Source: Flavobacteriales bacterium
GTDB lineage: Bacteria; Bacteroidota; Bacteroidia; UBA10329
Reading direction: 5' to 3'
DNA: 64,000 nt
Assembly (NCBI GenBank): GCA_016124845.1
Contig: WGMW01000013.1
Coordinates: 46,064 to 110,063, forward strand
Position 1 is the first letter of the stretch. Every line of letters starts with the position of its first letter. Positions 6,373 to 41,769 of this stretch are shown piece after piece. Both the position numbers and the translations under genes were made by a program. Under the pieces are notes generated by a model. The model did not search any database. It had not been told where the DNA came from and saw only the letters and a program-made list of their open reading frames with translations.

Positions 6373-7512
6373 ATGCTCTTTTCGCAGGTTGTAGGACAGC
6401 AGAAACTCAAGGAGAAACTCATTGGCTCGGTGCAGAATGCACGGGTGGCGCACGCACAGATGCTGGTCGGGCCATGTGGTGCGGGCTCGCTACCGATGGC
6501 GCTGGCCTATGCGCAATATCTGGCGTGTAAGAAAAGAACAGCATCGGATTCGTGCGGCAAATGCGATTCGTGCATCCGATATGCGAAATTGGAACATCCC
6601 GACCTACAGCTCATTTTCCCGAAGAATAAGACGCAGAAGGTCGATCACAAGAATTTTTCGAGCAAGGATTTTCTGCCCGATTGGCGAAAAGCGGTTTTGG
6701 CAAACCCGTACCTCAACCTGAATGATTGGCTCAAAGGCCTCGGCATTGACAACAAGCAGGGCGCCATCAACGTGGATGATAGCCGCGAGATCCTTCAGAA
6801 CTTGAGCTACAAAGCATACGAAGCCGATTACCGCGTGGTGCTCATTTGGTTGGCCGAATACATGAATACCGCAGCGGCAAACAAGCTCTTGAAAATTCTG
6901 GAGGAACCACCAGCACGAACGGTTTTCCTACTGGTGGCAGAGAGCACGGAGAACATGCTTCAGACCATCATTTCGCGGGTGCAGATTCATCGGTTGGGAA
7001 GGTTGAGTGAAGAAGAAATTGCAGGTGCGTTGGCTTCGGAAGATGTTGATTCCGATCAGGTGCAACGCTTGGCACATTTGGCAGATGGAAACCTGAACTT
7101 GGCGAAGCAGCTACTTGATGAGCAGGAATCGGTCACTACATCCGTTAACTTCTTCATAAAATGGATGCGGACGTGTTACGCCATGAATTTGGAACAGCTA
7201 ATGGAGCTGACGGATGAATTCAATACCCTTGGAAGAGAACAACAGAAAGCGCTGCTCGAACAGTCGGCCAGCATATTGAGGAAGGTTCTGATGTACAAGA
7301 CCATTCCTGACATGAAGGGCAAATTGCTCCGTGAAGAGATTGATTTCGTACACAAATTCTCACAGTTCATCGGCTTGGAAAATTCAGGACAGATGTTGGA
7401 AGCCTTGAACGAGGCACACTATCACATTGAGCGGAACGCCAACGCGCGCATCGTTTTCACCGACCTTTCCTTCATTCTCGCTGACCAGCTAAGAAGTATG
7501 GCTTTGCGATAA
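6373..7512 (+). CDS. holB: DNA polymerase III subunit delta'
   Basis: AAA+ clamp-loader features: MLVGPCGAGSLPMALAYAQYLAC P-loop-like segment, CGKCDSC zinc module, SRV/SRC-like ISRVQIH. Followed by a PSP1 gene, as in the Bacillus holB-yaaT arrangement. Confidence 0.85.
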   Translation: MLFSQVVGQQKLKEKLIGSVQNARVAHAQMLVGPCGAGSLPMALAYAQYLACKKRTASDSCGKCDSCIRYAKLEHPDLQLIFPKNKTQKVDHKNFSSKDFLPDWRKAVLANPYLNLNDWLKGLGIDNKQGAINVDDSREILQNLSYKAYEADYRVVLIWLAEYMNTAAANKLLKILEEPPARTVFLLVAESTENMLQTIISRVQIHRLGRLSEEEIAGALASEDVDSDQVQRLAHLADGNLNLAKQLLDEQESVTTSVNFFIKWMRTCYAMNLEQLMELTDEFNTLGREQQKALLEQSASILRKVLMYKTIPDMKGKLLREEIDFVHKFSQFIGLENSGQMLEALNEAHYHIERNANARIVFTDLSFILADQLRSMALR

Positions 7513-7689
7513 CGGACCTCTTTGCCTTCGGCATCTCTCCAAACAAGACAATGGAGTTTTGGAAGCATCAACTATCGGCCTCTGTGAAACGCAGAAACGC
7601 CTAATATCTCTGTGTAATAGAACCCCACACGAACATGGAGACATAAACCATTAAATTTGCCCAATTAGTTAGTTCAAGCAACCGAAAAG

Positions 7690-16722: not shown

Positions 16723-16734
16723 CGTTTTTGTTTG

Positions 16735-16807
16735 TTGGCCCACTAGGGCTCGAACCTAGACTCTTCTGAACCAAAATCAGACGTGTTGCCAGTTACACCA
16801 TGGGCCA
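16735..16807 (-). tRNA. tRNA-Gln (anticodon UUG)
   Basis: 73-nt cloverleaf folded by hand: acceptor U1-A72...A7-U66, D stem GUGU/ACAC, anticodon stem UCUGA/UCAGA with loop UUUUGGU (UUG), T arm CUAGG-UUCGAGC-CCUAG, discriminator A. CCA not encoded. Confidence 0.85.
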
Positions 16808-28942: not shown

Positions 28943-29353
28943 TCAACAGAACTCATCAAAAGCGGCTGTCAAATTCTCCGCGATCATTTCCGCTGGGCGA
29001 CCTTCAATGTGGTGGCGCTCAATGAAATGAACCAAGTTCCCGTCTTTGAAAAGCGCAATACTCGGACTGCTTGGTGGATAAGGCGCCATGTACTGACGTG
29101 CCTGCGCCACCGCATCTTTATCGAAACCCGCAAAAACCGTAGTTACTCGGTCTGGCGTTTTGCTGTGCTTTACGGCCATTTTCATGGCTGGGCGGGCATT
29201 GCCTGCGGCACAACCACAGACCGAATTGATAAAAACCAACGTGGTTCCATCAGCCTTGATGGCGTTATCAACGTCTTCGGGTGTAAGCAGTTCCTCAACA
29301 CCTGCTGAGGTAATGTCCTGCTTCATCGGTATAACTATTTCTGGAGGATACAT
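28943..29353 (-). CDS. bacilliredoxin (BrxA/BrxB, YphP/YqiW family, DUF1094)
   Basis: Conserved ...GTTLVFINSVCGCAAGNARPA... with the family-defining CGC motif. Confidence 0.8.
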   Translation of the reverse strand: MYPPEIVIPMKQDITSAGVEELLTPEDVDNAIKADGTTLVFINSVCGCAAGNARPAMKMAVKHSKTPDRVTTVFAGFDKDAVAQARQYMAPYPPSSPSIALFKDGNLVHFIERHHIEGRPAEMIAENLTAAFDEFC

Positions 29354-29448
29354 ATCACAAATTTTTAGGTTCAGAAATCAAATTTCGGTGTCCAAAGTTA
29401 CCGTTTATCTAAACCCATTCTAAATAACTTTGTTCTGCTCAAAAGCGA

Positions 29449-30039
29449 ATGCGTATGCGCTACAATCTCAGCGAAATCAAAGCCGTTATCGAGGACAGGC
29501 GGACCATCCATCCAGAAAATTACTCCACCCGTGTGGTGCAAAAGGAAATAATCAAGGAATTGCTCGATGCCGCTAAGTGGGCACCCACGCATCGGTACAC
29601 GCAACCGTGGTTCTTCAAAGTATTTGTTGGAGATGGGTTGAAAAAACTCTCCGAATTCCAGTCTGAACTTTACAAAGAGGTGAAAGGTGATGCGTTTGAG
29701 GAAGAGAAATATCAAAAGTTGAAAGCACGCCCGCTGATGGCAACAGCCATTATCGGTATCGGAATGAAGCGGGATGAAGCAGAACGCGATCCCGTTGAGG
29801 AAGAAATTGCTTCCGTTGCGATGGCTGTTCAGAACATGAAACTGTTGGCAGCCGCACACGGGATTGGAGCATTTTGGGCTTCTGGCGGGGTAACTTATTT
29901 GCCGCAGACCAAAGAATGGATCGGGTTGGGAGAAAAAGACAAATTCCTCGGATTCCTTTATCTTGGTTACCCGAAAGATGGTTGGCCGCGAAAGACGCGC
30001 AGAAAGCCACAGGAATATTACACAGAATGGGTTGAATAA
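29449..30039 (+). CDS. NAD(P)H nitroreductase family protein
   Basis: 196 aa. RRTIHPENYS...ELLDAAKWAPTHRYTQPW... typical nitroreductase fold signature. Confidence 0.8.
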   Translation: MRMRYNLSEIKAVIEDRRTIHPENYSTRVVQKEIIKELLDAAKWAPTHRYTQPWFFKVFVGDGLKKLSEFQSELYKEVKGDAFEEEKYQKLKARPLMATAIIGIGMKRDEAERDPVEEEIASVAMAVQNMKLLAAAHGIGAFWASGGVTYLPQTKEWIGLGEKDKFLGFLYLGYPKDGWPRKTRRKPQEYYTEWVE

Positions 30040-30075
30040 CCCCTCTGCCTTCGGCATTCTCCCCCAAGGGGAGAA
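30040..30075. repeat. REP-like palindromic element (copy 1)
   Basis: CCCCTCTGCCTTCGGCATTCTCCCCCAAGGGGAGAA: two hairpins (GCC-TTCG-GC; TCTCCCC/GGGGAGA). Near-identical copy at 38004..38039. Degenerate copy at 7513..7549. Confidence 0.6.
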
Positions 30076-30080
30076 CGTTT

Positions 30081-30518
30081 TTGGGGCTTTACCTACGTAC
30101 TTACTTTATTCGTTCACATGTATTATTCGTATCAGTTTTGAGTTGGAAAGACTTTTTTAAAGGAAATGGCACGGTTTCAACCTCTAAGGTGCCATGGAAG
30201 AATCTGACAGAGGAGCAACAGATTCAGAATATTGTAGAGCTATCGCACGAAAAACCGCAGCTGATCTTTAAGCACAGCACGCGCTGTTCCATCAGCATAA
30301 TGGCCAAAAGCAGATTGGACTCGGATTGGAACCTGGAAAACGTGGAACCGTGGTACCTCGACCTGCTTTCCTATCGCAATGTTTCCAATGCGGTGGCATC
30401 ACAATTGGGCGTGCAACACGAATCTCCGCAGGCCATTCTGCTGAAAGATGGCGTGGTCGTGCATGACAGTTCGCACAATGCTATTTCACTTCGCGAGTTG
30501 AGGAGGTGGGATAGGTAA
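30081..30518 (+). CDS. ytxJ: bacillithiol-system redox protein YtxJ (monothiol, TCPIS-type motif)
   Basis: ...EEQQIQNIVELSHEKPQLIFKHSTRCSISIMA... matches the YtxJ family (KHSxxCxIS). True start is probably downstream of the track ATG (non-ATG start), since the family is about 110 aa. Confidence 0.7.
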   Translation: MGLYLRTYFIRSHVLFVSVLSWKDFFKGNGTVSTSKVPWKNLTEEQQIQNIVELSHEKPQLIFKHSTRCSISIMAKSRLDSDWNLENVEPWYLDLLSYRNVSNAVASQLGVQHESPQAILLKDGVVVHDSSHNAISLRELRRWDR

Positions 30519-30584
30519 AGAATTTCCCGACAATTTGTCGGCACAATGTCACCAAACGCTATATTTGGGGAAAGCCTCAAATAA

Positions 30585-31181
30585 ATGGTATTGCTTGATA
30601 TTGGGAGTTGGTGGAATGGCCTGATGACGGTAGAAAAGATCTACTGGGGCATCGCCATTCTTGCATCTATTTTCTTTCTCATTCAACTGGTCATCACGTT
30701 CATGGGAGCGGATGCGGATGTCGATATGGAGATGGACCTTTCTACCGATATGGAAGTGGAAATGGACCACGGAATGGGATTTCAGTTCTTCACGCTGAAG
30801 AACCTGCTGGGCTTTTTCACACTCTTCGGCTGGACGGGTCTCGGCTGCCTGGACATGGGACTTTCATTGTTCCCGACCTTGGCCATTTCGAGTGCCAGCG
30901 GACTGGTAATGATGACCATCATGGCCACTATTTTCTACTTTATGAGCCAAATGACAGACAGCGGCACCATCAACATGAAAAACGCCATTGGTCAGACAGG
31001 AACCGTTTATTTGGTCATTCCTGCCAAACGTGCAGCCATTGGCAAGGTGAGTTTGGAAATTCAGGGAAGGAACATGGAGATGAATGCGATTACTGATGAT
31101 GAGACCGAAATCCCGACAGGAGGGGTGGTCGTGGTCTCGCAGGTCATCAACAACGGTCTTCTATTAGTAAAACGTCAATAA
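30585..31181 (+). CDS. NfeD-like membrane protein (YqiJ-like) with C-terminal OB-fold
   Basis: N-terminal TM helices, acidic D/E/M-rich linker, C-terminal beta-rich domain (...GTVYLVIPAKRAAIGKVSLEIQGR...). Located directly upstream of a flotillin gene, as in yqiJK/nfeD-floT pairs. Confidence 0.65.
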   Translation: MVLLDIGSWWNGLMTVEKIYWGIAILASIFFLIQLVITFMGADADVDMEMDLSTDMEVEMDHGMGFQFFTLKNLLGFFTLFGWTGLGCLDMGLSLFPTLAISSASGLVMMTIMATIFYFMSQMTDSGTINMKNAIGQTGTVYLVIPAKRAAIGKVSLEIQGRNMEMNAITDDETEIPTGGVVVVSQVINNGLLLVKRQ

Positions 31182-31190
31182 TCTAAACCT

Positions 31191-32810
31191 ATGAGTTATA
31201 TCATTATCGGAGTAGTTGCGGGAATTCTGTTCCTGTTTGTGCTTATTGTTTCATTGCTGGCGCGATACAAGCGCTGCCCTTCTGACCACATTTTGGTGGT
31301 TTATGGTAAGGTCGGTAGCGATGCCGAAGGCGGCCGTTCGGCCAAGTGTATTCACGGTGGCGCGGCTTTCATTTGGCCGATCTTTCAGGATTACGCCTTT
31401 TTGGATCTGACACCGCTTTCCATTGAGGTGAATCTCACATCTGCATTGAGCCGTCAGAACATCCGTGTGGATGTACCGTCACGCTTTACCGTTGGTATTT
31501 CTACAGAACCAGCCACCATGGTCAATGCGGCCGAGCGTCTCCTTGGTCTTTCCAAGCAGGATATTCACAACCTCGCCATCGACATCATTTTCGGTCAGTT
31601 GCGTCTTGTGGTTGCCACCATGGACATTGAAGAGATAAACAACAACCGCGACAAGTTCCTCTCGAACGTGGCAAGCAACGTGGAGGCGGAATTGCAGAAG
31701 ATCGGCCTCAAGCTCATCAACGTGAACGTAACGGACATCAAGGATGAGTCAGGCTACATCGAAGCACTTGGAAAAGAAGCGGCCGCTAAAGCGGTGAACG
31801 ATGCAAGAAAGACCGTTGCCGAGAAAAACCGTGATGGTTCTATCGGTGAATCGATCGCGCAGAAAGATGAGCGAGTGCAAGTAGCTGCGGCCATTGCTGA
31901 GGCGAAGATCGGGGAAGCGGCAGCGAATCAGAACGAGCGTGTTCAGGTGGCAAGTGCCGATTCGAAAGCAAAAGTGGGCGAGGCTGAGGCCAACGCCAAC
32001 GCGAGAATCGGAGAAGCCGAGGCCCAGAAACAGGAAAGAATGAGTGTTGCCGAGGCGAACGCCCGAGCGGTTGAGGGAGAAAACACATCAAGAATTGCCA
32101 TTGCCGATTCAGACTCAGAGAGAAGGCAGCGGGAAGCAGAGGCGGTGAAAAAAGCGGTGGCGATGGAAAAGGTTTCTCAGGCGAGAGCCTTGGAAGAGGC
32201 CTACGCGGCTGAGGAAAAAGCAGAACGCGCCCGTGCCGAGAAAGAGCGCGCCACGCAAACTGCCAATCAGGTTGTAAGCGCGGAGGTTGATAAGACCAAG
32301 ATCGAGATCGATGCCGAGGCGGAAGCAGAGCGCATCCGAAGAATTGCCAAAGGTGAGGCCGATGCGATCCTGTTCAGAAAACAAGCGGAGGCACAAGGTC
32401 TTTACGAGGTATTGAGCAAGCAGGCGCAAGGTTTCCAACAATTGGTCAGCGCGGCTGGAAACAACTCGAAAGATGCAGCCATGCTGATGATCGCGGACAA
32501 ACTGGAACAGCTTGTAAGACTTCAGGCCGAGGCCATCCAGAATGTGAAGATCGACAAGGTGACGGTTTGGGACAGCGGTTCGAAAGGAAAGGACGGCAAG
32601 ACAAACACGGCCGACTTCATCTCTGGAATGTACGGTTCCGTTCCGCCTTTGCAGGAGATGTTCCAAATGGCAGGGTTGAATCTGCCTGAATACCTGAAAG
32701 GAAAAGAGGGTGGAGATGAGGAAGTTCAGGATGCTGGGGTGGAAGAAAAACCAGCACCGAAATCTGCTCCAAAGGATGACTCCGACAAGAACGAAAAAGA
32801 GGAAAAGTAA
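31191..32810 (+). CDS. flotillin (SPFH/band 7 family) protein
   Basis: N-terminal TM, SPFH domain, long Ala/Glu-rich coiled-coil (flotillin EA repeats), C-terminal acidic tail. 539 aa. Confidence 0.85.
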   Translation: MSYIIIGVVAGILFLFVLIVSLLARYKRCPSDHILVVYGKVGSDAEGGRSAKCIHGGAAFIWPIFQDYAFLDLTPLSIEVNLTSALSRQNIRVDVPSRFTVGISTEPATMVNAAERLLGLSKQDIHNLAIDIIFGQLRLVVATMDIEEINNNRDKFLSNVASNVEAELQKIGLKLINVNVTDIKDESGYIEALGKEAAAKAVNDARKTVAEKNRDGSIGESIAQKDERVQVAAAIAEAKIGEAAANQNERVQVASADSKAKVGEAEANANARIGEAEAQKQERMSVAEANARAVEGENTSRIAIADSDSERRQREAEAVKKAVAMEKVSQARALEEAYAAEEKAERARAEKERATQTANQVVSAEVDKTKIEIDAEAEAERIRRIAKGEADAILFRKQAEAQGLYEVLSKQAQGFQQLVSAAGNNSKDAAMLMIADKLEQLVRLQAEAIQNVKIDKVTVWDSGSKGKDGKTNTADFISGMYGSVPPLQEMFQMAGLNLPEYLKGKEGGDEEVQDAGVEEKPAPKSAPKDDSDKNEKEEK

Positions 32811-33200
32811 ATGACAGCTGACGAAACGAAAACCATGTTGGCCTTGCTGGTGCAACTGGCAAAGGCCGATGGAACGGTCGATCTGAAGGAGGATTTCTTC
32901 ATCAAACTGTTTGCCCACAACAACTCCGTGGACCCAGGTGAATTTGACCGCATCTGTCGTTCGCCCGAAATGTATGCGCGCAATCTCGGTTCGCTTACTG
33001 ATAAGGAAGACGTGTTTGTGCGCCTGTGCAGTTTCGTGTATTTCGACATGAAAGCGGATGATGCCGAGTTGGAATGGTGCCGCAACGTGGGCCGTCAACT
33101 GGATCTTTCCGCCACCAAGGTGGACGAGGTCATCAGCACCATCCAAACCAGCGATGCGCCTTTGTCGGTGCAAGAACTTACCGAACTGGTCAAAGCATAA
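32811..33200 (+). CDS. TerB-like domain protein
   Basis: 129 aa starting at the flotillin stop. ...MLALLVQLAKADGTVDLKEDFFI... and ...ADDAELEWCRNVGRQLDLS... resemble the tandem helical repeats of the TerB fold. Confidence 0.5.
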   Translation: MTADETKTMLALLVQLAKADGTVDLKEDFFIKLFAHNNSVDPGEFDRICRSPEMYARNLGSLTDKEDVFVRLCSFVYFDMKADDAELEWCRNVGRQLDLSATKVDEVISTIQTSDAPLSVQELTELVKA

Positions 33201-33236
33201 AATGAAGGCAATTATCTTAGGGCGAAATTCAACCCG

Positions 33237-34244
33237 ATGAGATACCTTTTCCTGTTGGCCGTTCTTGGCCTTGTAAGCTGTTCGCAACCAAAGCAAGAAG
33301 AAGCGGTTGCCGAAACACCATCTTGCGAATACAATGATTTCAAAACCCCTGGCAATTATCAGGCTGGCGGAGTTCAGATGATCGACCTGAAAGAAGGCTA
33401 CAAGGTTTGGACGAAGCGTTTTGGAAACAGCCCGATGAAAGTGCTGATCCTGCACGGTGGCCCAGCGGGAACGCACGAATACTTGGAGAGCTTCCAGAGC
33501 TTTTTCCCGAAGGCGAATATTGAGTTTTTTGAATACGACCAGCTTGGTTCGTATTACTCCGATCAACCGACTGACACCAGCCTTTACAACATACCACGGT
33601 TTGTAGAGGAGGTAGAGCAGGTGCGCCAGAAATTGGGTTTGAACAAGGACAACTTTATTCTTCTCGGACAAAGTTGGGGCGGTATTCTTGCCATGGAATA
33701 TGCACTCAAGTACCAACAGAACCTGAAAGGATTGGTAATCTGCAACATGACGGCCGATTTCCATAAATACGCGGCTTACAACAACAAACTCCGCGAAGAA
33801 CTCCGCCCGAGTTTGGTGGACACGCTGAAGATGTATGAAGACGCGGGCGATTACTCAAACCCTGTTTACTTGGAATTGGTGGAGAAGGAATTCTACGCCA
33901 AACACATTTGCCGCATTTATCCATTTCCTGAGCCAGTTGCGCGCAGCTTCTCGCACTTCAACATGGATGTTTATACCTATATGCAAGGCCCAAGCGAGTT
34001 TGTTCCAGGCGGTATTCTGAAGGACTGGAGCGTTTGGGACAGATTGCATGAAATTTCTGTTCCCACGTTGATGGTCGGAGCCAAGTACGACAGCATGAAC
34101 CCTGAGGAAATGAAGGAGATGTCAACCCTTGTTCAGAACGGGGAATACCTCTACTGCCCGAATGGCAGCCACCTCGCCCTGTGGGACGACCAGCAGGTTT
34201 TTATGGATGGGGTGATCGGGTTTATTCATCGGGTATTCGAATGA
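33237..34244 (+). CDS. proline iminopeptidase-family alpha/beta hydrolase (lipoprotein)
   Basis: Lipoprotein signal MRYLFLLAVLGLVSCSQ, GQSWGG nucleophile elbow, prolyl aminopeptidase-like size. Last about 40 nt are repeated at 34961..35007. Confidence 0.8.
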   Translation: MRYLFLLAVLGLVSCSQPKQEEAVAETPSCEYNDFKTPGNYQAGGVQMIDLKEGYKVWTKRFGNSPMKVLILHGGPAGTHEYLESFQSFFPKANIEFFEYDQLGSYYSDQPTDTSLYNIPRFVEEVEQVRQKLGLNKDNFILLGQSWGGILAMEYALKYQQNLKGLVICNMTADFHKYAAYNNKLREELRPSLVDTLKMYEDAGDYSNPVYLELVEKEFYAKHICRIYPFPEPVARSFSHFNMDVYTYMQGPSEFVPGGILKDWSVWDRLHEISVPTLMVGAKYDSMNPEEMKEMSTLVQNGEYLYCPNGSHLALWDDQQVFMDGVIGFIHRVFE

Positions 34245-34272
34245 GAGCATTTCTGTAACTTCGTAATCGGAA

Positions 34273-34920
34273 ATGTCTCAAAGACTTAAGGATGAATTAC
34301 GAGCTGTCATTTCAGGAAAGAGCAAGGTTAGGTTCGGAGCAACTATCCAAGCAGTTATCAGTAACCTTGGAACAGGCGCGCCAACAAGCACAACGACTCA
34401 AAGCCTTAAGCAGGTCAAAGGTGAAGAAGCAGAGCGCATAAGTGCTTTTGCTCGCAGATCGGGGCTTTGGCAGGAAAGCATCGATATTTCAAACTATGTG
34501 AGCGAGGGCGCAGAACAGAGGGTTTATCTTAAAGACCAAGACCATGTTCTGAAACTGAATGATGCCATCTATTTTGAAACGTGGCGCGACTATCTGCACA
34601 ATCTGTTGCTGCATAATTACTTTTTTACTGACACGGCCTATGAGCTGGTAGGATTTACACAAATAGACCATGTCTTGCATGCCATGGTAAAACAGCGATT
34701 TGTAATAAGTACGATACTTACAGACCTTTCTGAAGTTCGCAGTTTCTTGGAAACGAATGGTTTTAAGAATACGCGAAACAACGATTATTTACATGCTGGC
34801 GCTGGCGTTATTCTGGAGGATCTGCACGATGAGAATGTTCTTACTCAGAATGGCATGCTCTATTTTATTGACACAGTGTTTTATCTGACCCAAGCGTTTT
34901 GGACCGATGAACATGAATAG
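34273..34920 (+). CDS. hypothetical protein with atypical protein-kinase-like motifs (small stand-alone kinase fold?)
   Basis: 215 aa. Gly-rich NLGTGAP. VYLK (beta3 Lys-like). LEDLHDENVL resembles catalytic-loop HxDxxxxN of RIO/Kdo/Bud32-type kinases. YFIDT resembles the DFG-equivalent. No signal peptide. Confidence 0.45.
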   Translation: MSQRLKDELRAVISGKSKVRFGATIQAVISNLGTGAPTSTTTQSLKQVKGEEAERISAFARRSGLWQESIDISNYVSEGAEQRVYLKDQDHVLKLNDAIYFETWRDYLHNLLLHNYFFTDTAYELVGFTQIDHVLHAMVKQRFVISTILTDLSEVRSFLETNGFKNTRNNDYLHAGAGVILEDLHDENVLTQNGMLYFIDTVFYLTQAFWTDEHE

Positions 34921-34960
34921 TTGAGCTACCTTGCCACCAACGGCAATTAAACGGGTTCTT

Positions 34961-35007
34961 TGGATGATGTGATCGGGTTTATTCACCGAACGTTTGAGGA
35001 GGATTAA
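34961..35007 (+). repeat. degenerate direct repeat of the iminopeptidase gene 3' end (remnant LDDVIGFIHRTFEED* segment)
   Basis: Aligns with 34205..34244 (MDGVIGFIHRVFE*) at about 78% nt identity. 10 of 13 encoded residues identical. Confidence 0.75.
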
Positions 35008-36161
35008 CGCCTTGCTCGGCTGAGCCGATAGGAAACCCCAACGGTTGGTAGGATGTAAGGTTTCCCGACCTTATTGATGAACGTAAACGGTTGGCCCAAG
35101 CTCCATATCAGGTTCATTCCAGCAAAACCCGAAAATCCTTTGTCAAGGTTCACTTTCCCGCGCAGCGTGACATAAGGATCCACACTTGCATTGAACAATG
35201 AGGCGGCAAGCCCCCCACCAACCTGAAACCCTGTGTTGTTCCAAAGAAACGCCATTCCCATATCCAAGTGGCCTTGAAGCAATGGCATGGCGGTTCCCAA
35301 GCCTGTTCGGAAATAGTAGTTGGCCACTTTGCGAGGAGAAAGAGGCACATAAAGCGTGTAGTGAACCGTTACCACAGCAGGGCCGAAAATGCTTAGACCG
35401 AATTCGCTGTTTCGCCAAATTAGCCCTGTATCCTGCTGAGCAACTTCGGCAAGCGTGTTTCGCAAGCGTTCCCGCTCGGTTTTACGGTAAGCGTTTCGTT
35501 CTGGCCGTTCCATCCTTGCGTATGCCACAAACTCCTTGTGCTGTTTCCACGAAGGAATGCGATACCCGATATAAGCACTTGGCCAAATAGAGAAAACGGG
35601 ATAGTTGTTCCGTTTGCTTATCGTTGGCCCATATTCGGACTGGCCACCGATCAAGTAGAGTTTTGTCCCGAACAGGAATCCCGTGGGAGCCTGATACCGA
35701 TACCCGACCGAGCCGAAGAGGTTGAATTCCATGTAGGCAGGGATAGGTTCCCAATATGGGTTTTGAGTTTGCGAGAAGTATACGTTCCATAGGCCACCAC
35801 CAATCGTCAATCGGTTTCTGCGCCTCCCGAATTCGGCTGAAAGCGCGTATATCAGAGAGGCCCTGTATTTGATATATCCAGCGGTATAGGGACCGAGAGC
35901 TCCAGCACCGAAACGAATGTTCAAGGTCATGATGTCGGTCATGATCGGAGAACCCTCAAGGTTCAAGGTCACGCCTGTTCCCAGCCCTAAGAACTCAGTG
36001 TAGGAAGCAACCCTGCCCAAAAACGGGCGGAAGGCCACCTTACGGCCAGCACCATTCACATCATCGATCTTTGGGAGTTGAGCCAGGCCAAACTTCCCAA
36101 CAAGAAGGATTAAAACAAGCGTAGTTGTCCAGCGCATGCGTTGGACAACGAAACGAAACAA
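35004..36161 (-). CDS. hypothetical outer-membrane beta-barrel protein
   Basis: Signal peptide, alternating amphipathic beta-strand pattern, aromatic-rich, C-terminal ...VSYRLSRARR. 385 aa. Confidence 0.55.
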   Translation of the reverse strand: MFRFVVQRMRWTTTLVLILLVGKFGLAQLPKIDDVNGAGRKVAFRPFLGRVASYTEFLGLGTGVTLNLEGSPIMTDIMTLNIRFGAGALGPYTAGYIKYRASLIYALSAEFGRRRNRLTIGGGLWNVYFSQTQNPYWEPIPAYMEFNLFGSVGYRYQAPTGFLFGTKLYLIGGQSEYGPTISKRNNYPVFSIWPSAYIGYRIPSWKQHKEFVAYARMERPERNAYRKTERERLRNTLAEVAQQDTGLIWRNSEFGLSIFGPAVVTVHYTLYVPLSPRKVANYYFRTGLGTAMPLLQGHLDMGMAFLWNNTGFQVGGGLAASLFNASVDPYVTLRGKVNLDKGFSGFAGMNLIWSLGQPFTFINKVGKPYILPTVGVSYRLSRARR

Positions 36162-36191
36162 AGAATAGTATTTGAAGCGTTCGGTTTGGTG

Positions 36192-37901
36192 TTAAACCGC
36201 CTCCACGGTCAACCCAGCATCCGTCTTGGTCACCTTGGCAACGCCCATAGAGGTTAGCCCTTTGATGCTCTTGTCCCACTGCTTTCCGCTGAGAGCAGAT
36301 CGGGTTTTCAGGTCGTTCAGGTCCATGGGCGAGTTCTTGGCAAGAATGTCGAAAACAAGTTTCTCGTTCTCGTTCAGCTCTACTTTCTTCTCTGTCTTTT
36401 TCTCTGGCCGCATCTGAGGGAAGAACAGAATGTCCTGAATAGAATGCTGGTCGGTCAGCATCATGGCCAAGCGATCCATGCCGATGCCCATTCCTGAAGT
36501 TGGCGGCATGCCGTATTCCAATGCGCGCAAGAAATCCTGATCGATCATCATGGCCTCATCATCACCACGGTCGGCCAAACGCATTTGCTCTTCAAAACGC
36601 TCGCGCTGCTCCAACGGATCGTTCAGCTCAGAGTATGCGTTGGCAATCTCCTTTCCGCAGATCATCAGCTCAAAGCGCTCCACCAATCCTTCTTTGCTGC
36701 GGTGCTTTTTGGTCAGTGGCGACATTTCAACGGGATAATCCGTGATGAATGTTGGCTGAACATAATTCGCCTCACATTTCTCACCAAAGATCTCATCGAT
36801 GAGTTTGCCTTTGCCCATGCTTGGGTCAACCTCCACGCCAAGGTCTTTGCACACTTGGCGCAATTCTTCCTCACCCATGCCAGTGATGTCAACACCTGTA
36901 TGCTCCTTGATGGCATCCAGCATCGGTACGCGTGGATAAGGCGCTTTGAAGCTCACCTCCATGTTTCCGTACTTGATCTCGGTCGTGCCATTCAGCGCAA
37001 TACAGGCTTTTTCGAGAAGCTTCTCGGTGAAGTCCATCATCCAATTGTAATCCTTGTAGGCCACGTAGATCTCCATCACCGTGAACTCAGGATTGTGTGT
37101 GCGGTCCATGCCTTCGTTACGGAAATCCTTGGCGAACTCGTACACGCCATCGAAACCGCCCACGATCAATCGCTTCAGGTAAAGCTCGTTCGCAATACGC
37201 AGATAAAGGGGAATGTTCAGCGCGTTATGATGCGTGATGAACGGACGTGCAGCTGCACCACCAGGAATGGCCTGCAGGATAGGCGTTTCCACCTCCAAAA
37301 TATCATGCTCGTTGAAGTAATCGCGGAACACGCTGTAAAGCTTCGTGCGCTTCTTGAAAACCTCTTTGGTTTTCGGGTTCACCACAAGATCCACGTACCG
37401 CTGACGATAGCGGAACTCCGCATCGGTCACCGCATCATGCACCTTTCCGTCTGCATCGGTCTTTACCACAGGCAGCGGCTTCACCGACTTGGCAAGCACG
37501 GTCAATTCCTTCACATGTACTGAAGTTTCGCCAACCTGCGTTCTGAAAACATGCCCTTTAATGCCGATGAAATCACCGAAATCGAGCAGTTTCTTGAACA
37601 CCTCATTATAAAGCGTCTTGTCATCGCCAGGGCAGATCTCGTCTCTCGCGATGTAGATCTGCACACGGCCAGAAGCATCTTGCAGCTCCGCAAACGAGGC
37701 TTTTCCCATCACACGCACGCTCATCAAGCGACCAGCAAGAACCACATCGTTCAACTCTTCGCCACCCTCGAAACGTTTCTTCAGGTCCGTAGCAAGAATG
37801 TTCACGGGGAATTCGGCCGCTGGATACGGGTCAATGCCAAGGTCTTCGAGCTTCTTCAGCGCATCGCGTCTGACAATCTCCTGTTCGCTTAGTTCGTGCA
37901 T
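36192..37901 (-). CDS. lysS: lysine--tRNA ligase (class II) with C-terminal extension
   Basis: Internal start MHELSEQEIVRRDALKKLEDLGIDPYPA.... Anticodon-binding OB domain, class II motifs. The 138-aa upstream extension of the track ORF is Arg/Pro-rich junk overlapping the REP element. Confidence 0.9.
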   Translation of the reverse strand: MHELSEQEIVRRDALKKLEDLGIDPYPAAEFPVNILATDLKKRFEGGEELNDVVLAGRLMSVRVMGKASFAELQDASGRVQIYIARDEICPGDDKTLYNEVFKKLLDFGDFIGIKGHVFRTQVGETSVHVKELTVLAKSVKPLPVVKTDADGKVHDAVTDAEFRYRQRYVDLVVNPKTKEVFKKRTKLYSVFRDYFNEHDILEVETPILQAIPGGAAARPFITHHNALNIPLYLRIANELYLKRLIVGGFDGVYEFAKDFRNEGMDRTHNPEFTVMEIYVAYKDYNWMMDFTEKLLEKACIALNGTTEIKYGNMEVSFKAPYPRVPMLDAIKEHTGVDITGMGEEELRQVCKDLGVEVDPSMGKGKLIDEIFGEKCEANYVQPTFITDYPVEMSPLTKKHRSKEGLVERFELMICGKEIANAYSELNDPLEQRERFEEQMRLADRGDDEAMMIDQDFLRALEYGMPPTSGMGIGMDRLAMMLTDQHSIQDILFFPQMRPEKKTEKKVELNENEKLVFDILAKNSPMDLNDLKTRSALSGKQWDKSIKGLTSMGVAKVTKTDAGLTVEAV

Positions 37902-37984
37902 GCGTAAAATTTTGCGCAAAGATAACAGCCGAGGCCAAGGCTTCCTCGCTTCAAAACTTTGAGACACACTATATTCGCGTTCGC

Positions 37985-39958
37985 ATGAAAAACAACCCCA
38001 CAAGCCCCTCTGCCTTCGGCATCTCCCCAAAGGGGAGAATCCTGCTTGCAAGCAGCCTTCGTCTTTCCTTTGTTCTTGTTCTCTTTTTTCTTTTTTCTCC
38101 CGCCCAAGCGGGTGGAGGCAAGGAAGGCGACAAAACCCTTGGACAAACCCACTACAGCCCCGAACCGCAGTACAAAGCGGCCTTCGATTATTATTCGCGG
38201 TATGTGCCGATGAGCGATGGCGTGAAGCTGGCGGTGGATGTCTTTCTCCCAAAGAATTTGGAGGAAGGAAAGAAGGTGCCGACCGTAGTTTATTTCGTTC
38301 GGTATGTGCGAACATTCGAGCTCAAAGCCTTTTGGCGTGGACTGAAAGACCCAGCTTTCGGAAGTGTTGCCGAGGATGAGGTCAAGTTCTTCAACTCGCA
38401 CGGTTATGCTGTCGCGATTGTTGACTTGCGCGGAACGGGCGCGTCTTATGGTCACCGCGACATGGAATTTTCGCCACAGGAAGTGAACGACATGGGGCAG
38501 ATGCTCGATTGGATCGTGAAAGAACCGTGGTCTGATGGGAAGACCGCCACCACTGGAATCTCCTACACGGGAACAACGGCCGAGTTGGCGCTCATTACGA
38601 AGCACCCATCGCTGAAAGCGTGTGTTCCGCGCAGCAATATCTGGGACCTCTATACCGACATCGTTTTTCCAGGAGGAATCCGTCAGTCACCGTTCATTAA
38701 GGTTTGGAAGTTGACCACCAACTCGCTGGATAACAATAACATGTCGGTTTTCGGGAAGAAGATCGACACGTTTGTGAAACAGCCGCACCCTGTCGATGGC
38801 GACAAAAAGGGAGAGGAGCTGCATGTGGCCATGGAGCAGCACAAGGACAACTACGACATTTTCGATGGCCTTTATCGCATTGAGGCGCGTGATGAACCAG
38901 ACCGTGGCCACGGTGCGGAGCTAACGGCAGACGACTGTAGCATTCACAACCGTAAAGAAGACATTCAGGCGGGTGGTGTTCCGATCTTCCGTATCTCGGG
39001 TTGGTTCGATGGTGCGCTTCCGAACTCGGTTTTCAAAGGTTTTTGGAACACTTCGAACACCAAGCGGGTGATGATCGGTCCTTGGGATCATGGTCCAGGG
39101 CAATACTTCACCAATTTCACAGGAAACAAGGAAAAGGAACTCAACATCAAAATGGAGATACTGCGGTTCCTGGATCAATATGTGAAGGGAATCGACACGG
39201 GATTGGATAAGGAACCGCCAGTTAATTATTTCACCATGGGCGAGCAGGCGTGGAAGGCTTCCAACACGTGGCCCCCAAAAGAGGTGCAATCGACCGAGAT
39301 GTTCTTTTCGCCAGAATTGCTTGAGAACGAAAAACCCGCCAAGGAAGAGATCGTGACGTACAATTGCGATTACAACACCACAACAGGCTACGGGGAAAAA
39401 GGTGGTGGCACACGCTGGAACTCATTGACCACGCTCTACAAATATGAGAAAACGTATTACGGCCCGCGAGGAGGTCAGGATCTGTTGATGGAGGTTTTTG
39501 ATGGGCCCGTTCTGGAAAAGGATGTGGAGATAACGGGTCATCCAGAAGTTCATTTGAATTTGAGCACCAACACAGGAGAAGGCCATGTTTTCGCGTACTT
39601 GGAAGAAGTGCTTCCTGACGGCACCAGCCGCTACATCACCGAAGGGATGCTCGACATCAACCATGTGAACCTGTGCAAGGATGGCGATTATTCGTGCTGT
39701 TTTCCACAGCATTCGTTCAAAGAGAAGGACATGGTGAAACTCAAACCAGATGAGTTTAAGAAGACGGTCATCAACATGATTCCGACCAGTTATACGGTCA
39801 TGGCGGGCAATCGAATCCGAATGGCAATAGGAGTGGCCGATAAGGATCATTTCGACATTCCCGAAGAAAGCATCCGACCAGAAAAACTGAATATCAAAAC
39901 GGGCGGAGATAACGGTAGTTTTGTCCGTCTTCCTATTGTTTACAAAGACGTCAATTGA
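37985..39958 (+). CDS. CocE/NonD family hydrolase (X-Pro dipeptidyl-peptidase S15-like), secreted
   Basis: ...YVPMSDGVKLAVDVFLP... N-terminal catalytic-domain start, GISYTG nucleophile motif, C-terminal beta-sandwich. Start codon uncertain (REP element lies in the 5' end). Confidence 0.8.
   Translation: MKNNPTSPSAFGISPKGRILLASSLRLSFVLVLFFLFSPAQAGGGKEGDKTLGQTHYSPEPQYKAAFDYYSRYVPMSDGVKLAVDVFLPKNLEEGKKVPTVVYFVRYVRTFELKAFWRGLKDPAFGSVAEDEVKFFNSHGYAVAIVDLRGTGASYGHRDMEFSPQEVNDMGQMLDWIVKEPWSDGKTATTGISYTGTTAELALITKHPSLKACVPRSNIWDLYTDIVFPGGIRQSPFIKVWKLTTNSLDNNNMSVFGKKIDTFVKQPHPVDGDKKGEELHVAMEQHKDNYDIFDGLYRIEARDEPDRGHGAELTADDCSIHNRKEDIQAGGVPIFRISGWFDGALPNSVFKGFWNTSNTKRVMIGPWDHGPGQYFTNFTGNKEKELNIKMEILRFLDQYVKGIDTGLDKEPPVNYFTMGEQAWKASNTWPPKEVQSTEMFFSPELLENEKPAKEEIVTYNCDYNTTTGYGEKGGGTRWNSLTTLYKYEKTYYGPRGGQDLLMEVFDGPVLEKDVEITGHPEVHLNLSTNTGEGHVFAYLEEVLPDGTSRYITEGMLDINHVNLCKDGDYSCCFPQHSFKEKDMVKLKPDEFKKTVINMIPTSYTVMAGNRIRMAIGVADKDHFDIPEESIRPEKLNIKTGGDNGSFVRLPIVYKDVN
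38004..38039. repeat. REP-like palindromic element (copy 2)
   Basis: CCCCTCTGCCTTCGGCATCTCCCCAAAGGGGAGAA, followed by a perfect 14-bp palindrome CTGCTTGCAAGCAG (38042..38055). Confidence 0.6.
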
Positions 39959-39959
39959 C

Positions 39960-40943
39960 ATGAAAGAACTTATCAAGGACTTCACGAATCAGGTAGCACA
40001 TGCCATCGTTATCGGCAATGCCTACGAGCCATCTGATTGGAACGCGAACATCTCCAACGTGCTCATTTCTGGGCTCGGGGGCTCAGGAATAGGAGGAACG
40101 ATAGCGGCTGAGGTTGTGGCTTCAGAGGCACGCGTGCCGATTGTCACCAACAACGGCTATTTCATCCCAAATTTTGTGGGCATCAACACGCTTTTCTTGG
40201 CGTGTTCGTATTCAGGAAATACCGAAGAAACCATTAGCGCAGCTAAGTTGGCGCATGAGGAAGGAGCCAAGATCGTGGTCGTTTCCAGCGGTGGAAAACT
40301 GAAGGAAATGGCCGATGAGTTCGGTTGGGATTTCATTGGCATTCCAGGAGGGCAGCCGCCACGTGCAAGTTTCGGGCTTTCATTCCCAGAAGTGCTGTAC
40401 GTGTTGCATGCACACGACATCATTTCTAAAAAGTTTGAGAAAGAACTGGAAGCTGCGATCAAACTGTTGGATGACAACGAAATTGCGATTCAGGACGAAG
40501 CCAAGCAGGTAACGGAAAAGCTGTTCGGTAAAATTCCTGTGATCTATGCGGCAGATGGTTTTGGGGGTGTGGCCACGCGCTTCCGCCAGCAGGTGAACGA
40601 GAATGCTAAGATGCTCTGCTGGCATCACGTTATTCCAGAGATGAACCACAACGAACTGGTTGGGTGGAGAGACAAGAACGAAGACCTGGCAGTTGTCATT
40701 TTTCGCAACGAGACGGATTTCAAGAACATTCAAGCACGGATGGAAATCAACAAAGGCACGCTTTCGGAGTACACGAACACTATTGTTGAGGTTTGGTCGA
40801 AGGGAACATCAGACCTTCAGCGCGCGCTGTATCTGATTCACTTGGGAGATTGGGTTTCATTTTTCCTCGGAGAGAAAAAAGGTGTTGACATCACGGAGGT
40901 TAAGGTGATTGACCATTTGAAGGGCGAATTGGCCAAGTTGTAG
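39960..40943 (+). CDS. bifunctional phosphoglucose/phosphomannose isomerase (SIS domain, PGI/PMI family)
   Basis: Internal ATG at 39960 (MKELIKDF...). SGLGGSGIGG and the family-typical CSYSGNTEET motif. Confidence 0.75.
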   Translation: MKELIKDFTNQVAHAIVIGNAYEPSDWNANISNVLISGLGGSGIGGTIAAEVVASEARVPIVTNNGYFIPNFVGINTLFLACSYSGNTEETISAAKLAHEEGAKIVVVSSGGKLKEMADEFGWDFIGIPGGQPPRASFGLSFPEVLYVLHAHDIISKKFEKELEAAIKLLDDNEIAIQDEAKQVTEKLFGKIPVIYAADGFGGVATRFRQQVNENAKMLCWHHVIPEMNHNELVGWRDKNEDLAVVIFRNETDFKNIQARMEINKGTLSEYTNTIVEVWSKGTSDLQRALYLIHLGDWVSFFLGEKKGVDITEVKVIDHLKGELAKL

Positions 40944-41058
40944 CCCCCTAAATCCCCCAAAGGGGGACACACTCTGCGAACTCCGTGTCCGACTTTGTGT
41001 TCTCTGTAGTTAAATAATCTCTGCGACCTTTGCGCTGACTTTGCGTCTTTGCGGTTCA

Positions 41059-41769
41059 ATGGAAAAGCACAACGTTTATTTCGAAGACAAAGGCCTCGTT
41101 CCGTACAAGGAATGTTGGGATTACCAGTTGGAACTGTTCCACGAAATGGTGGAACGCAAAAAGTGGAACAAGCTCAATCCAGAATACCCGAAGCACACAG
41201 AAAGTAGATTGATCTTCTGTTCGCATCCGCACGTTTACACATTGGGCAAAAGCGGAAAGGAGGAAAATCTCCTGCTAACGCAAAGCGAACTCAAGATACA
41301 TGGCGCGGAGTTCTATCACATCAACCGTGGAGGCGACATCACCTACCACGGCCCAGGCCAAATTGTCGGTTATCCGATCTTCGACCTCGATTTCTTCTTC
41401 CACGACATCCATAAGTTCATCGATAAGCTCGAAGATGCCATCATCGCCACGTTGGCTGAATATGGCATCATTGCAGGTCGTGGACCTAAAGGTTTTACAG
41501 GCGTGTGGATCGATTGGGAAAAACCCGAAAAAGCACGGAAGATCTGCGCCTTCGGTATGCACACCAGCCGCTGGGTAACCATGCATGGCTTTGCACTAAA
41601 TGTGAATACTGACCTGGAGTATTACAAGCACATCATTCCCTGCGGAATTGACGACAAAGCGGTCACTTCCATGCAAGCAGAGTTGAGGAAAGAAGTCAGT
41701 GAGCAAGAGGTGAAAGACAAACTGAAAGCTCAGATTGCCAAAGAACTCGGTATTCAAGAATTCGTGTAG
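41059..41769 (+). CDS. lipB: lipoyl(octanoyl) transferase
   Basis: ...HINRGGDITYHGPGQIVGYPI... (LipB RGG..TYHGPGQ motif). Start chosen at MEKHNVYF. Confidence 0.88.
   Translation: MEKHNVYFEDKGLVPYKECWDYQLELFHEMVERKKWNKLNPEYPKHTESRLIFCSHPHVYTLGKSGKEENLLLTQSELKIHGAEFYHINRGGDITYHGPGQIVGYPIFDLDFFFHDIHKFIDKLEDAIIATLAEYGIIAGRGPKGFTGVWIDWEKPEKARKICAFGMHTSRWVTMHGFALNVNTDLEYYKHIIPCGIDDKAVTSMQAELRKEVSEQEVKDKLKAQIAKELGIQEFV

Follow-up and report, generated by a model that had tools for sequence, protein, structure and literature searches.

A 64,000-nucleotide (nt) stretch of the genome of a Flavobacteriales bacterium (contig WGMW01000013.1, positions 46,064 to 110,063; hereafter the window) contains four copies of a short, GC-rich element that very probably belongs to an inserted, widespread family of three-tract repeats. 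The family unit is ∼24 to 36 bp long, and on one strand its parts follow the order H, linker, W, loop, R. The consensus tracts are CCCCTCT for H, TCTCCCC (the mirror image of H) for W, and GGGGAGA (complementary to W) for R; the usual linker is a mini-hairpin of 3 to 5 bp with a TNC triloop. H also matches R in the parallel register, with C for G and T for A. This H-W-R order is the class IV (Hoogsteen-Y-R) layout of a pyrimidine-motif intrastrand triplex, and on the complementary strand the order is that of class II (Y-R-reverse-Hoogsteen), the purine motif; the definitions of both classes are those of Holder et al. 2015 (PMC4666352). We think it probable, from the way the tracts vary together, that selection maintains a triplex-compatible fold of the single strand. 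As a whole, the explanation that we favor is a nonautonomous selfish element resembling the repetitive extragenic palindromic (REP) sequences, a variant of the triplex-motif repeats. We infer both the triplex folding and the means of spread.

All four window copies (Table 1) are in the sense orientation. A sequence-only reading of the window had reported near-identical copies 1 and 2, the former directly after the nitroreductase stop; both are present, and the differences between them are one inserted T and one C/A substitution. The same reading had placed a degenerate copy after the holB stop. We found copy 3 4 nt downstream of that stop, with 2 mismatches in its left half (7517-7534); it is identical to copy 2 at 28 of 35 positions, and its hairpin 2 is destroyed. 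Copy 4, recognized earlier as a related TCCCCCAAAGGGGGA palindrome directly after the PGI stop, has the H-W-R order of copies 1 to 3 but a 3-nt, BoxC-like linker. The CCCCTCT tract 5′ of hairpin 1, the mirror of TCTCCCC, and the identical three-tract layout at 40944-40967 had been missed. The GC content of the window is 49.7%. A Hamming scan of the window with the 18-nt left half gave two exact matches plus the match in copy 3. With a 16-mer and ≤3 mismatches allowed, there were 5 matches versus 0.53 expected, and 0/100 shuffles reached 5; two of the five (31321 and 43778) look like chance. Perfect H-linker-W-loop-R motifs numbered 3 versus 0.11 expected (100 simulations, maximum of 1), and apart from these three, the 64 kb has no GC-rich homopyrimidine/homopurine hairpin of 6 bp or more.

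Folding with ViennaRNA, which treats secondary structure only, predicted the two hairpins previously claimed for each element in copies 1 and 2: hairpin 1 as UGCC-UUC-GGCA, with 4 bp and a triloop, and hairpin 2 as (U)UCUCCCC-NNN-GGGGAGA(A). The UUCG tetraloop that had been claimed for hairpin 1 had to be given up, as the cUUCGg register leaves a C-C mismatch. Across the family, the linker stems show compensatory changes (GCC-TTC-GGC, GTCAC-TCC-GTGAC, GTCCC-TAC-GGGAC, GTCGC-TAC-GCGAC, GCCCC-TTC-GGGGC, and GCCC-GTT-GGGC, with loops all classed as TNC type), and the length of the hairpin 2 loop is free, ranging from 2 to 14 nt with a nested stem in some copies. All six frames of copies 1 and 2 are free of stop codons, and the element plus two flanking bases makes 12 codons.

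We regard the window copies as inserted DNA because close relatives lack the element at all four sites; syntenic relatives have an empty site or other content there (loci from other genomes carry L numbers). At site 1, L121 and L124 have a 357-amino-acid (aa) O-methyltransferase gene between the nitroreductase and BrxC genes, where the window has the element plus 62 bp. Site 3 is a 62-bp spacer in L152-L154, relatives with 91 to 93% identical HolB; the window has ∼115 bp more, beginning right after the TAA with the decayed copy 3 at its 5′ edge. At site 4, the stop and start codons overlap in relatives (TGATG/TAATG), and the window has a 115-bp spacer (40944-41058) after the TAG, with copy 4 at the 5′ edge. 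Site 2 is empty in L121, where ATGAAAAACAACCCC is joined directly to TTTACTTACAG, and is occupied by the identical 35-mer in L123. In L124 (10000-10130), it holds two other GC hairpins. One of them is CCCCTCCCC-atca-GGGGAGGGG; the second is a related class IV element on the opposite strand, CCCCCTC-GACCTACGGCCA-CTCCCCC-TTTCCG-GGGGGAG. The L124 hairpins therefore mark the N terminus of the peptidase (P0001) as a recurrent insertion hot spot at which insertions stay in frame. Other orthologues have the decayed versions PFAFGISPKERE and LSDFGIFPKGRE. Between the window and L123, the element is identical at 35/35 positions, versus 78% nucleotide identity in the flanking genes and 53% just downstream, a contrast suggesting that the element is under strong constraint, evolves in concert, or has inserted repeatedly at a hot spot. 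A longer mobile unit was considered and rejected, as the segments inserted at the four window sites have no common sequence beyond the element itself. Close relatives differ in the presence of the element, so the earlier suggestion that it could serve as a strain marker is sound for lineages.

The family extends far beyond the copies first noticed. A degenerate 24-nt pattern covering the three window forms, for which ∼0.5 chance matches are expected in 596 Gb, matched more than 120 genome loci at least. Among the matches listed, most were in metagenome-assembled genomes of Dehalococcoidia/Chloroflexota, with many copies per genome; the other carriers listed were Pedobacter, Aequorivita, Dokdonia, Confluentibacter, Saprospiraceae, Lentimicrobiaceae, Paludibacteraceae, Dialister, Abditibacteriales, and Chitinivibrionales. 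The known copies of the source genome, which is not among the loci listed, are those of the window. The exact window-type 34-mer occurred in 25 metagenome contigs with GC contents from 25 to 49%. A copy with 94% identity is present in plasmid pAQ5 of Picosynechococcus sp. PCC 7002 (L155:1501-1536) and four related plasmids; it reads CCCCCTCT-GCCTATCGGCA-TCTCCCC-AGA-GGGGAGA, has a GCC-TATC-GGC linker, and lies 2 nt after a stop, antisense to that gene. In the listed contexts, the Bacteroidota copies are singletons, and Dehalococcoidia have inverted pairs of two subtypes ∼100 bp apart. A search of the literature with the element sequence and the peptide motif, out of whose reach were subscription papers (Hoyne et al. 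2000 included), gave unrelated primer matches only.

There were zero matches in phage records and 2 in 2.9 million viral contigs. In these two (L156:2740-2840, minus strand, and L157:5115-5215, minus strand), hairpin 2 is extended by a nested stem (TCTCCCCcAAATTGC...GCAATTTaGGGGAGA); the hairpin 2 loop can therefore host extra structure. The element also occurs in several larger arrangements. In Dialister/Paludibacteraceae (L050:6900-7600, L052:1-300 and 6700-6944, L075, L008:3600-3900, and L085), it is a module within a longer conserved unit, aaaaccatacaa-hairpin-ggaaatRcacc-[module]-gtcctacggac-ctatcatt. This unit is found as inverted arms and as ∼190-bp tandem repeats, with one arm in which TTTTAT(T) replaces the GCCTTCGGCA linker; the open reading frames (ORFs) next to these composite repeats are housekeeping genes, with no autonomous partner among them. 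In Pedobacter superstes (L106:2500-4300), six elements of two linker subtypes fall within 1.7 kb, in pairs 148 bp apart inside an apparent tandem duplication of ∼1131 bp. In marine Bacteroidota contigs (L134, L136, L139, L141, L142, L145, L149, L099, and L079), the 34-mer lies in the longer unit cacaccccRa-[element]-aYAGCCCTCTCAAGAGGGGA, which has a third small hairpin 3′ of the element.

The third tract gave the evidence that bears on folding. We defined elements without regard to the sequence of H, as a pyrimidine tract, a hairpin-containing linker, and a second pyrimidine tract that pairs for 6 bp or more with a purine tract 3′ of it. H was the exact mirror of W in 180/192 elements so defined. 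H, W, and R change together in five subfamilies (Table 1), several of them with different linkers and in different genomes. The type of H equaled the type of W in 163/192 elements, versus a permutation maximum of 122; when the elements were collapsed to classes of type and linker, the match was 28/44 (permutation mean, 7.0; maximum, 16). The length of the C run was the same in H and W in 120/192 elements (Spearman, 0.64). Formal counts were made on 13 distinct rows of (H8, W8, R8), which are concatenated tract extracts and not native sequence. Watson-Crick pairing of W with R was 98.1%, with 13 double-change cells. In the parallel register, H matched R at 98.1% of the four linker-proximal positions (9 double-change cells; 0/500 shuffles as high), a value that fell when the tracts were slid, and at 96.2% of the four distal positions (26/500 shuffles as high). 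The antiparallel control gave 76.9%, no better than shuffles. We know of no copying process that yields mirror symmetry, nor, to our knowledge, can a two-fold symmetric protein read it. A triplex-compatible fold appears to be the most economical reading of the mirrored tracts.

In such a fold, W and R would form the hairpin, and H would lie in its major groove as a third strand parallel to R. The fold would most likely serve the element's own propagation or retention and probably not a host function. It might, for example, be a substrate for a trans-acting enzyme on transiently single-stranded DNA, or it could stall replication and so provoke template switching. That the enzyme is of the HUH type, acting on single-stranded DNA, is a guess that we hold to be rather unlikely. 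Effects on the host would be incidental: a terminator-like 3′ hairpin (copy 1), twelve extra signal-peptide residues (copy 2), and local indel hot spots. A bolder proposal is that the elements form an undescribed, cross-phylum class of hairpin-clamped intrastrand-triplex elements, that the fold is the substrate of a single-stranded-DNA mobilization route which places 36-bp inserts into essential genes such as mnmE, and that the three-way changes are comparative evidence of selection on a triplex in living bacteria; we put this forward tentatively and with some doubt.

Most copies lie near genes but outside them. By crude longest-ORF calls, 52% of 225 motifs were intergenic, versus 13% of bases; the configurations were convergent for 40, tandem for 47 (22 sense and 25 antisense), and divergent for 13. 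A hand tally of tandem contexts (those listed plus the window copies) gave 11 sense and 7 antisense. Many of the copies at the AT-richer Bacteroidota and metagenome loci are 0 to 33 nt past a stop (0 in L143, 2 in L048, 3 in L133, 4 in L072, and 7 in L146). A bias toward gene ends, as proposed from the window, is seen in the enrichment between convergent and codirectional genes. The stronger statement that the elements sit right after stop codons did not survive as a rule. In the window, copies 1, 3, and 4 begin 0, 4, and 0 nt past a stop; copy 2 does not. Elsewhere, a substantial minority of copies are in frame inside genuine genes (Table 1), also including those for a methyltransferase, an AMP-binding enzyme, and the N-terminal regions of secreted proteins. 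The 12-residue peptides so added include PSAFGISPKGR and PLPSASPQRGE and, in antisense, SPLWGDAEGRG.

Copy 2, which had been assigned to a position after a stop codon, instead occupies codons 7 to 18 of the S15 peptidase ORF read from ATG 37985 (MKNNPTSPSAFGISPKGR..., followed by a signal-peptide-like segment; MKNNPTSPSAFGISPKGRILLASSLRLSFVLVLFFLFSPAQA-GGGK). A 707-aa minus-strand ORF here is an overextension of lysS; the conserved LysS N terminus (MHELSEQEIV...) begins at 37899, and copy 2 therefore lies between divergent genes, inside the peptidase ORF. Orthologues of the peptidase start with MKNNP or MKNP and continue directly into the hydrophobic core. We conclude that copy 2 is most likely translated, within the n-region of the signal peptide, because the MKNNP start is common to the window peptidase and the insert-free orthologue P0002 (MKNNPFTYSVRPFFFLVLFFLISSAQA) and because ATG 37985 is the only in-frame ATG, GTG, or TTG upstream of the hydrophobic core.

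Orientation was also compared with GC skew. In L001-L120, the orientation of the GCCTTCGGC-linker subtype agreed with the sign of the local 8-kb GC skew at 47 loci and disagreed at 18 (P of ∼4e-4). This subtype's orientation was not correlated with crude ORF direction, and the GTCAC-linker subtype had no skew bias. A replication-strand bias was rejected as the meaning of this result: the 8-kb GC skew is incoherent along chromosome OZ242281.1 and so is not a proxy for the replichore.

Of the classes described so far, BoxC/PIT/TMECO is the nearest, although the element does not belong to that sequence family. In both, one strand carries three G/C-rich homopurine/homopyrimidine tracts whose order and register are compatible with a triplex; both are tens of bp long, multicopy, mostly intergenic, and associated with no class of genes. 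For E. coli BoxC/TMECO, in vitro work has demonstrated the class II purine-motif layout, which is that of the element's complementary strand (PMC4666352). In both, the carrier loci vary between close relatives: TMECO loci are more rearranged among strains (PMC4666352), which parallels the four variable sites of the window. However, the BoxC/PIT/TMECO consensus, CCCTCNCCC N3-6 GGGNGAGGG N3 GGGNGAGGG, has no match in the window, where the tracts are CCCCTCT/TCTCCCC/GGGGAGA. Its loops are short (the second is 3 nt), whereas the element has a covarying mini-hairpin linker of 10 to 14 nt (10 to 11 nt in copies 1 to 3); 3-nt loops occur in the window only at 40944-40967. The element's tracts are not self-symmetric, though most T motifs mirror themselves, and its carriers are Bacteroidota, Chloroflexota, and Cyanobacteria. 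In E. coli K-12 MG1655, every TMECO copy is intergenic (PMC4666352), but the element also lies in frame inside ORFs. The ITxF motif search accepts loops of 1 to 6 nt (PMC4666352), and because of this limit it would have missed copies with a hairpin linker.

It had also been suggested that the element is a small MITE (miniature inverted-repeat transposable element) or REP family. It is a genuine repeat family and REP-like: the copies are palindromic, 20 to 40 bp long, and mostly between convergent and codirectional ORFs near 3′ ends, with some in-frame intragenic copies and, in some genomes, inverted dimers as in BIMEs and REPINs. The two described REP superfamilies are defined by an unpaired GTAG or CGTC tag at the end of the palindrome (Di Nocera et al. 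2013, PMC3733652). The element differs in having neither tag, in its extra mirror tract and linker hairpin, and in the lack of a RAYT (REP-associated tyrosine transposase) gene beside the copies examined. The MITE label does not fit, since the element is a hairpin with a third tract and not a core between terminal inverted repeats, and no target-site duplication is visible. Rickettsia palindromic elements are likewise palindromic selfish elements that survive in frame in unrelated housekeeping genes, but they are ∼100 to 150 bp long and restricted to Rickettsia (PMC10969869), whereas our element adds only 12 codons and is found in several phyla.

The proposal that the elements act as terminators or mRNA stabilizers was one of the alternatives that we weighed. 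Intrinsic terminators or 3′-end stabilizers that evolved in the host, with hairpins that stop RNA polymerase or block 3′ exonucleases, would fit copy 1, whose GC-rich, 8-bp hairpin 2 has CGTTTTTGGG on its 3′ side and ranks first among the terminator-like sites of the 12 kb from 29300 to 41300. They would also fit the sense placement of copies 1, 3, and 4 at 0 to 4 nt past stops and the position of many copies elsewhere, 0 to 33 nt past a stop. The proposal fits copy 1 alone: copies 2 and 4 and the family generally have no T run, copy 2 is in a 5′ coding region between divergent genes, other copies are inside ORFs, and the orientation in tandem contexts is mixed by either count given above. In addition, the occurrence of identical sequence at loci and in phyla that are unrelated speaks for insertion over local evolution, termination makes no use of the conserved H tract, and PIT elements have neither promoter nor terminator activity (PMC4666352). 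We therefore judge a termination or stabilizing function improbable. About equally improbable is that the element works as RNA, the C-rich strand forming a hairpin and a pyrimidine-motif, ENE-like RNA triple helix with a protective or regulatory role for transcripts. In its favor, RNA is able to form intrastrand triplexes of the pyrimidine motif (PMC4666352), each of the four window copies is sense, and the GCCTTCGGC-subtype orientation follows local GC skew (47 versus 18 loci). This last signal was not reproduced with ORF direction, and antisense copies are common, both intergenic and intragenic (L148, L023, L065, L097, L127, and pAQ5). Consecutive C+ triads have little strength at neutral pH, and no Rfam family reached the gathering score at the elements in the window or in 18 loci, the only matches being tRNA, tmRNA, and an S16 leader elsewhere.

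More serious, though in our judgment still unlikely, is the possibility that these are ordinary REP/REPIN elements mobilized by a RAYT (Y1/HUH) transposase, with the first tract being part of the recognition sequence and no triplex involved. Published REPs lie between convergent or codirectional genes, <20 bp from 3′ ends, and have intragenic copies (PMC3733652); the element resembles them in size, palindromy, placement near 3′ ends, and in-frame intragenic copies, and the inverted pairs of Dehalococcoidia are like BIME/REPIN dimers. Yet the GTAG/CGTC tag is at neither end, the Bacteroidota copies are singletons, no Y1 transposase was near any copy examined, and the window-specific ORFs are not transposases. 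Sequence recognition by a protein also fails to account for the mirrored changes of H and W in five subfamilies. Finally, a chance or low-complexity effect of C/G runs might be suspected from the compositional simplicity of the tracts; it is refuted by the shuffles and simulations of the window (0/100 with 5 left-half matches; 3 motifs versus 0.11), by the number of genome loci relative to the ∼0.5 expected, and by the arbitrary GCCTTCGGCA linker that the copies have in common.

Several points weigh against the selfish, triplex-compatible element that we prefer. On the pyrimidine-motif strand, four to six consecutive C+·G-C triads are unfavorable at neutral pH. Many copies come from a few amplified subfamilies, so that only some five of the covariation events are independent. 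The T-containing motifs are mostly self-mirroring (TCT, CTC, CTTC, and TCTCT), and mirror and direct repetition are strictly separated only by the CCT/TCC subfamily and the placement of the C run. Many Dehalococcoidia copies end in GGGGGGAGAGGGGA, and in these a three-way junction could form instead, with the C run of H paired to the 3′ GGGG; this junction is inapplicable to copy 2 and most Bacteroidota copies, which have no 3′ G run. The gene calls at the fetched loci are crude longest ORFs, no transposase was found near any copy examined, and no target-site duplication was visible when filled and empty sites were compared at sites 1 to 4. For TMECO itself, triplex formation was confined to isolated single strands and was observed neither in duplex DNA nor, by dimethyl sulfate footprinting, in vivo (PMC4666352).

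The genes next to the copies were assigned with Pfam. P0121 has 100% identity to the holB product of the window, and locus L150 matches the window without difference over 16.8 kb. Copy 1 is between the nitroreductase gene (29449-30039) and a BrxC-like gene, copy 3 between holB (6373-7512) and a PSP1-domain gene, and copy 4 between a bacterial PGI gene ending at 40943 and a lipoate-protein ligase gene. Two of these genes probably start elsewhere than their longest ORFs: the BrxC-like gene at TTG 30138, which aligns with ATGAGCTGG in relatives, and the ligase gene at ATG 41059, giving 236 aa as in relatives. An exact-protein look-up of the nitroreductase returned no record. Between the alpha/beta hydrolase gene and lysS, the window has two genes (34273-36161) without a counterpart in the relative L121, which has a 106-aa ORF there; the segment, a small accessory insertion, has no relation to the repeat. 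The sole Rfam or tRNA match in the window is a tRNA-Gln at 16734-16807; ARAGORN gave nothing besides it.

Table 1. Window copies and nearby features, in-frame host genes at other loci, and tract subfamilies. ORF, open reading frame; aa, amino acid.
Feature	Location	Strand	Description
Copy 1	30040..30075	+	Sequence CCCCTCTGCCTTCGGCATTCTCCCCCAAGGGGAGAA; starts directly after nitroreductase stop; H CCCCTCT 30040-30046; mini-hairpin GCC-TTC-GGC 30047-30055, then AT; W TCTCCCC 30058-30064; loop CAA; R GGGGAGA 30068-30074
Copy 1, hairpin 2 (8 bp) then CGTTTTTGGGG	30057..30086	+	Terminator-like configuration, this copy only
Copy 2	38005..38039	+	Sequence CCCCTCTGCCTTCGGCATCTCCCCAAAGGGGAGAA; codes for SPSAFGISPKGR within S15 peptidase ORF; H 38005-38011; mini-hairpin 38012-38020, then A; W 38022-38028; loop AAA; R 38032-38038
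Copy 3, decayed	7517..7550	+	CCTCTTT GCCTTCGGC A TCTCTCC AAA CAAGACA; holB stop at 7510-7512
Copy 4, short-linker member	40944..40967	+	CCCCCT aaa TCCCCC aaa GGGGGA; directly after PGI stop
Spacer, 98 bp	30040..30137	+	Nitroreductase to BrxC-like gene; O-methyltransferase gene there in relatives
Kinase-PolyVal domain protein	34273-34920	+	Window specific
385-aa protein without Pfam match	35004-36161	-	Window specific
lysS	36192..37899	-	Divergent from S15 peptidase; true start MHELSEQ at 37899
S15/CocE-NonD peptidase	37985..39958	+	Predicted signal-peptide n-region hosts copy 2 in frame
MnmE			In frame; two Flavobacteriaceae, same site; DAPSAFGISPQGGEF; two copies in Dokdonia
GT9 glycosyltransferase			In frame; GPSAFGISPKGRK
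C39-ABC exporter			In frame; 28-30% GC genomes; VPSAFGISPKGRV
E2 acyltransferase linker			In frame; TPLPSASPQRGE
Epimerase			In frame, antisense orientation; SPLWGDAEGRGE
In-frame host gene	L018:1983-3407	-	
In-frame host gene	L114:4688-6205	+	
In-frame host gene	L128:557-1819	+	
In-frame host gene	L131:10783-13020	+	
In-frame host gene	L140:4470-6713	-	
In-frame host gene	L137:3149-4447	+	
In-frame host gene	L148:6725-7792	-	
Subfamily main			H ...TCT; W TCT...; R ...AGA; most copies
Subfamily TCTCT			H CCCTCTCT; W TCTCTCCC; R GGGAGAGA; Pedobacter, Dokdonia, other Bacteroidota
Subfamily CTC			H CCCCCTC; W CTCCCCC; R GGGGGAG; several genomes
Subfamily CTTC			H CCCCCTTC; W CTTCCCCC; R GGGGGAAG; four loci, four different linkers
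Subfamily CCTC			H CCCCCTCC; W CCTCCCCC; R GGGGGAGG; four to five loci, four to five linkers

Potential triplex repeats of the BoxC/PIT/TMECO kind have been known since the 1990s to 2000s, without an assigned function or in vivo evidence that the triplex matters. The covarying linker hairpin, the several subfamilies, and tracts that are not self-symmetric, where T motifs mostly mirror themselves, make the present family a natural covariation test of the third strand, and so short and defined an element is suited to biophysical and genetic tests. The family shows that a GC-rich element of 36 bp is able to spread between phyla and among genomes of 25 to 50% GC. Its persistence inside conserved proteins bears on gene annotation, through spurious or extended N termini and 12-residue inserts of the PSAFGISPKGR type, and on strain typing.

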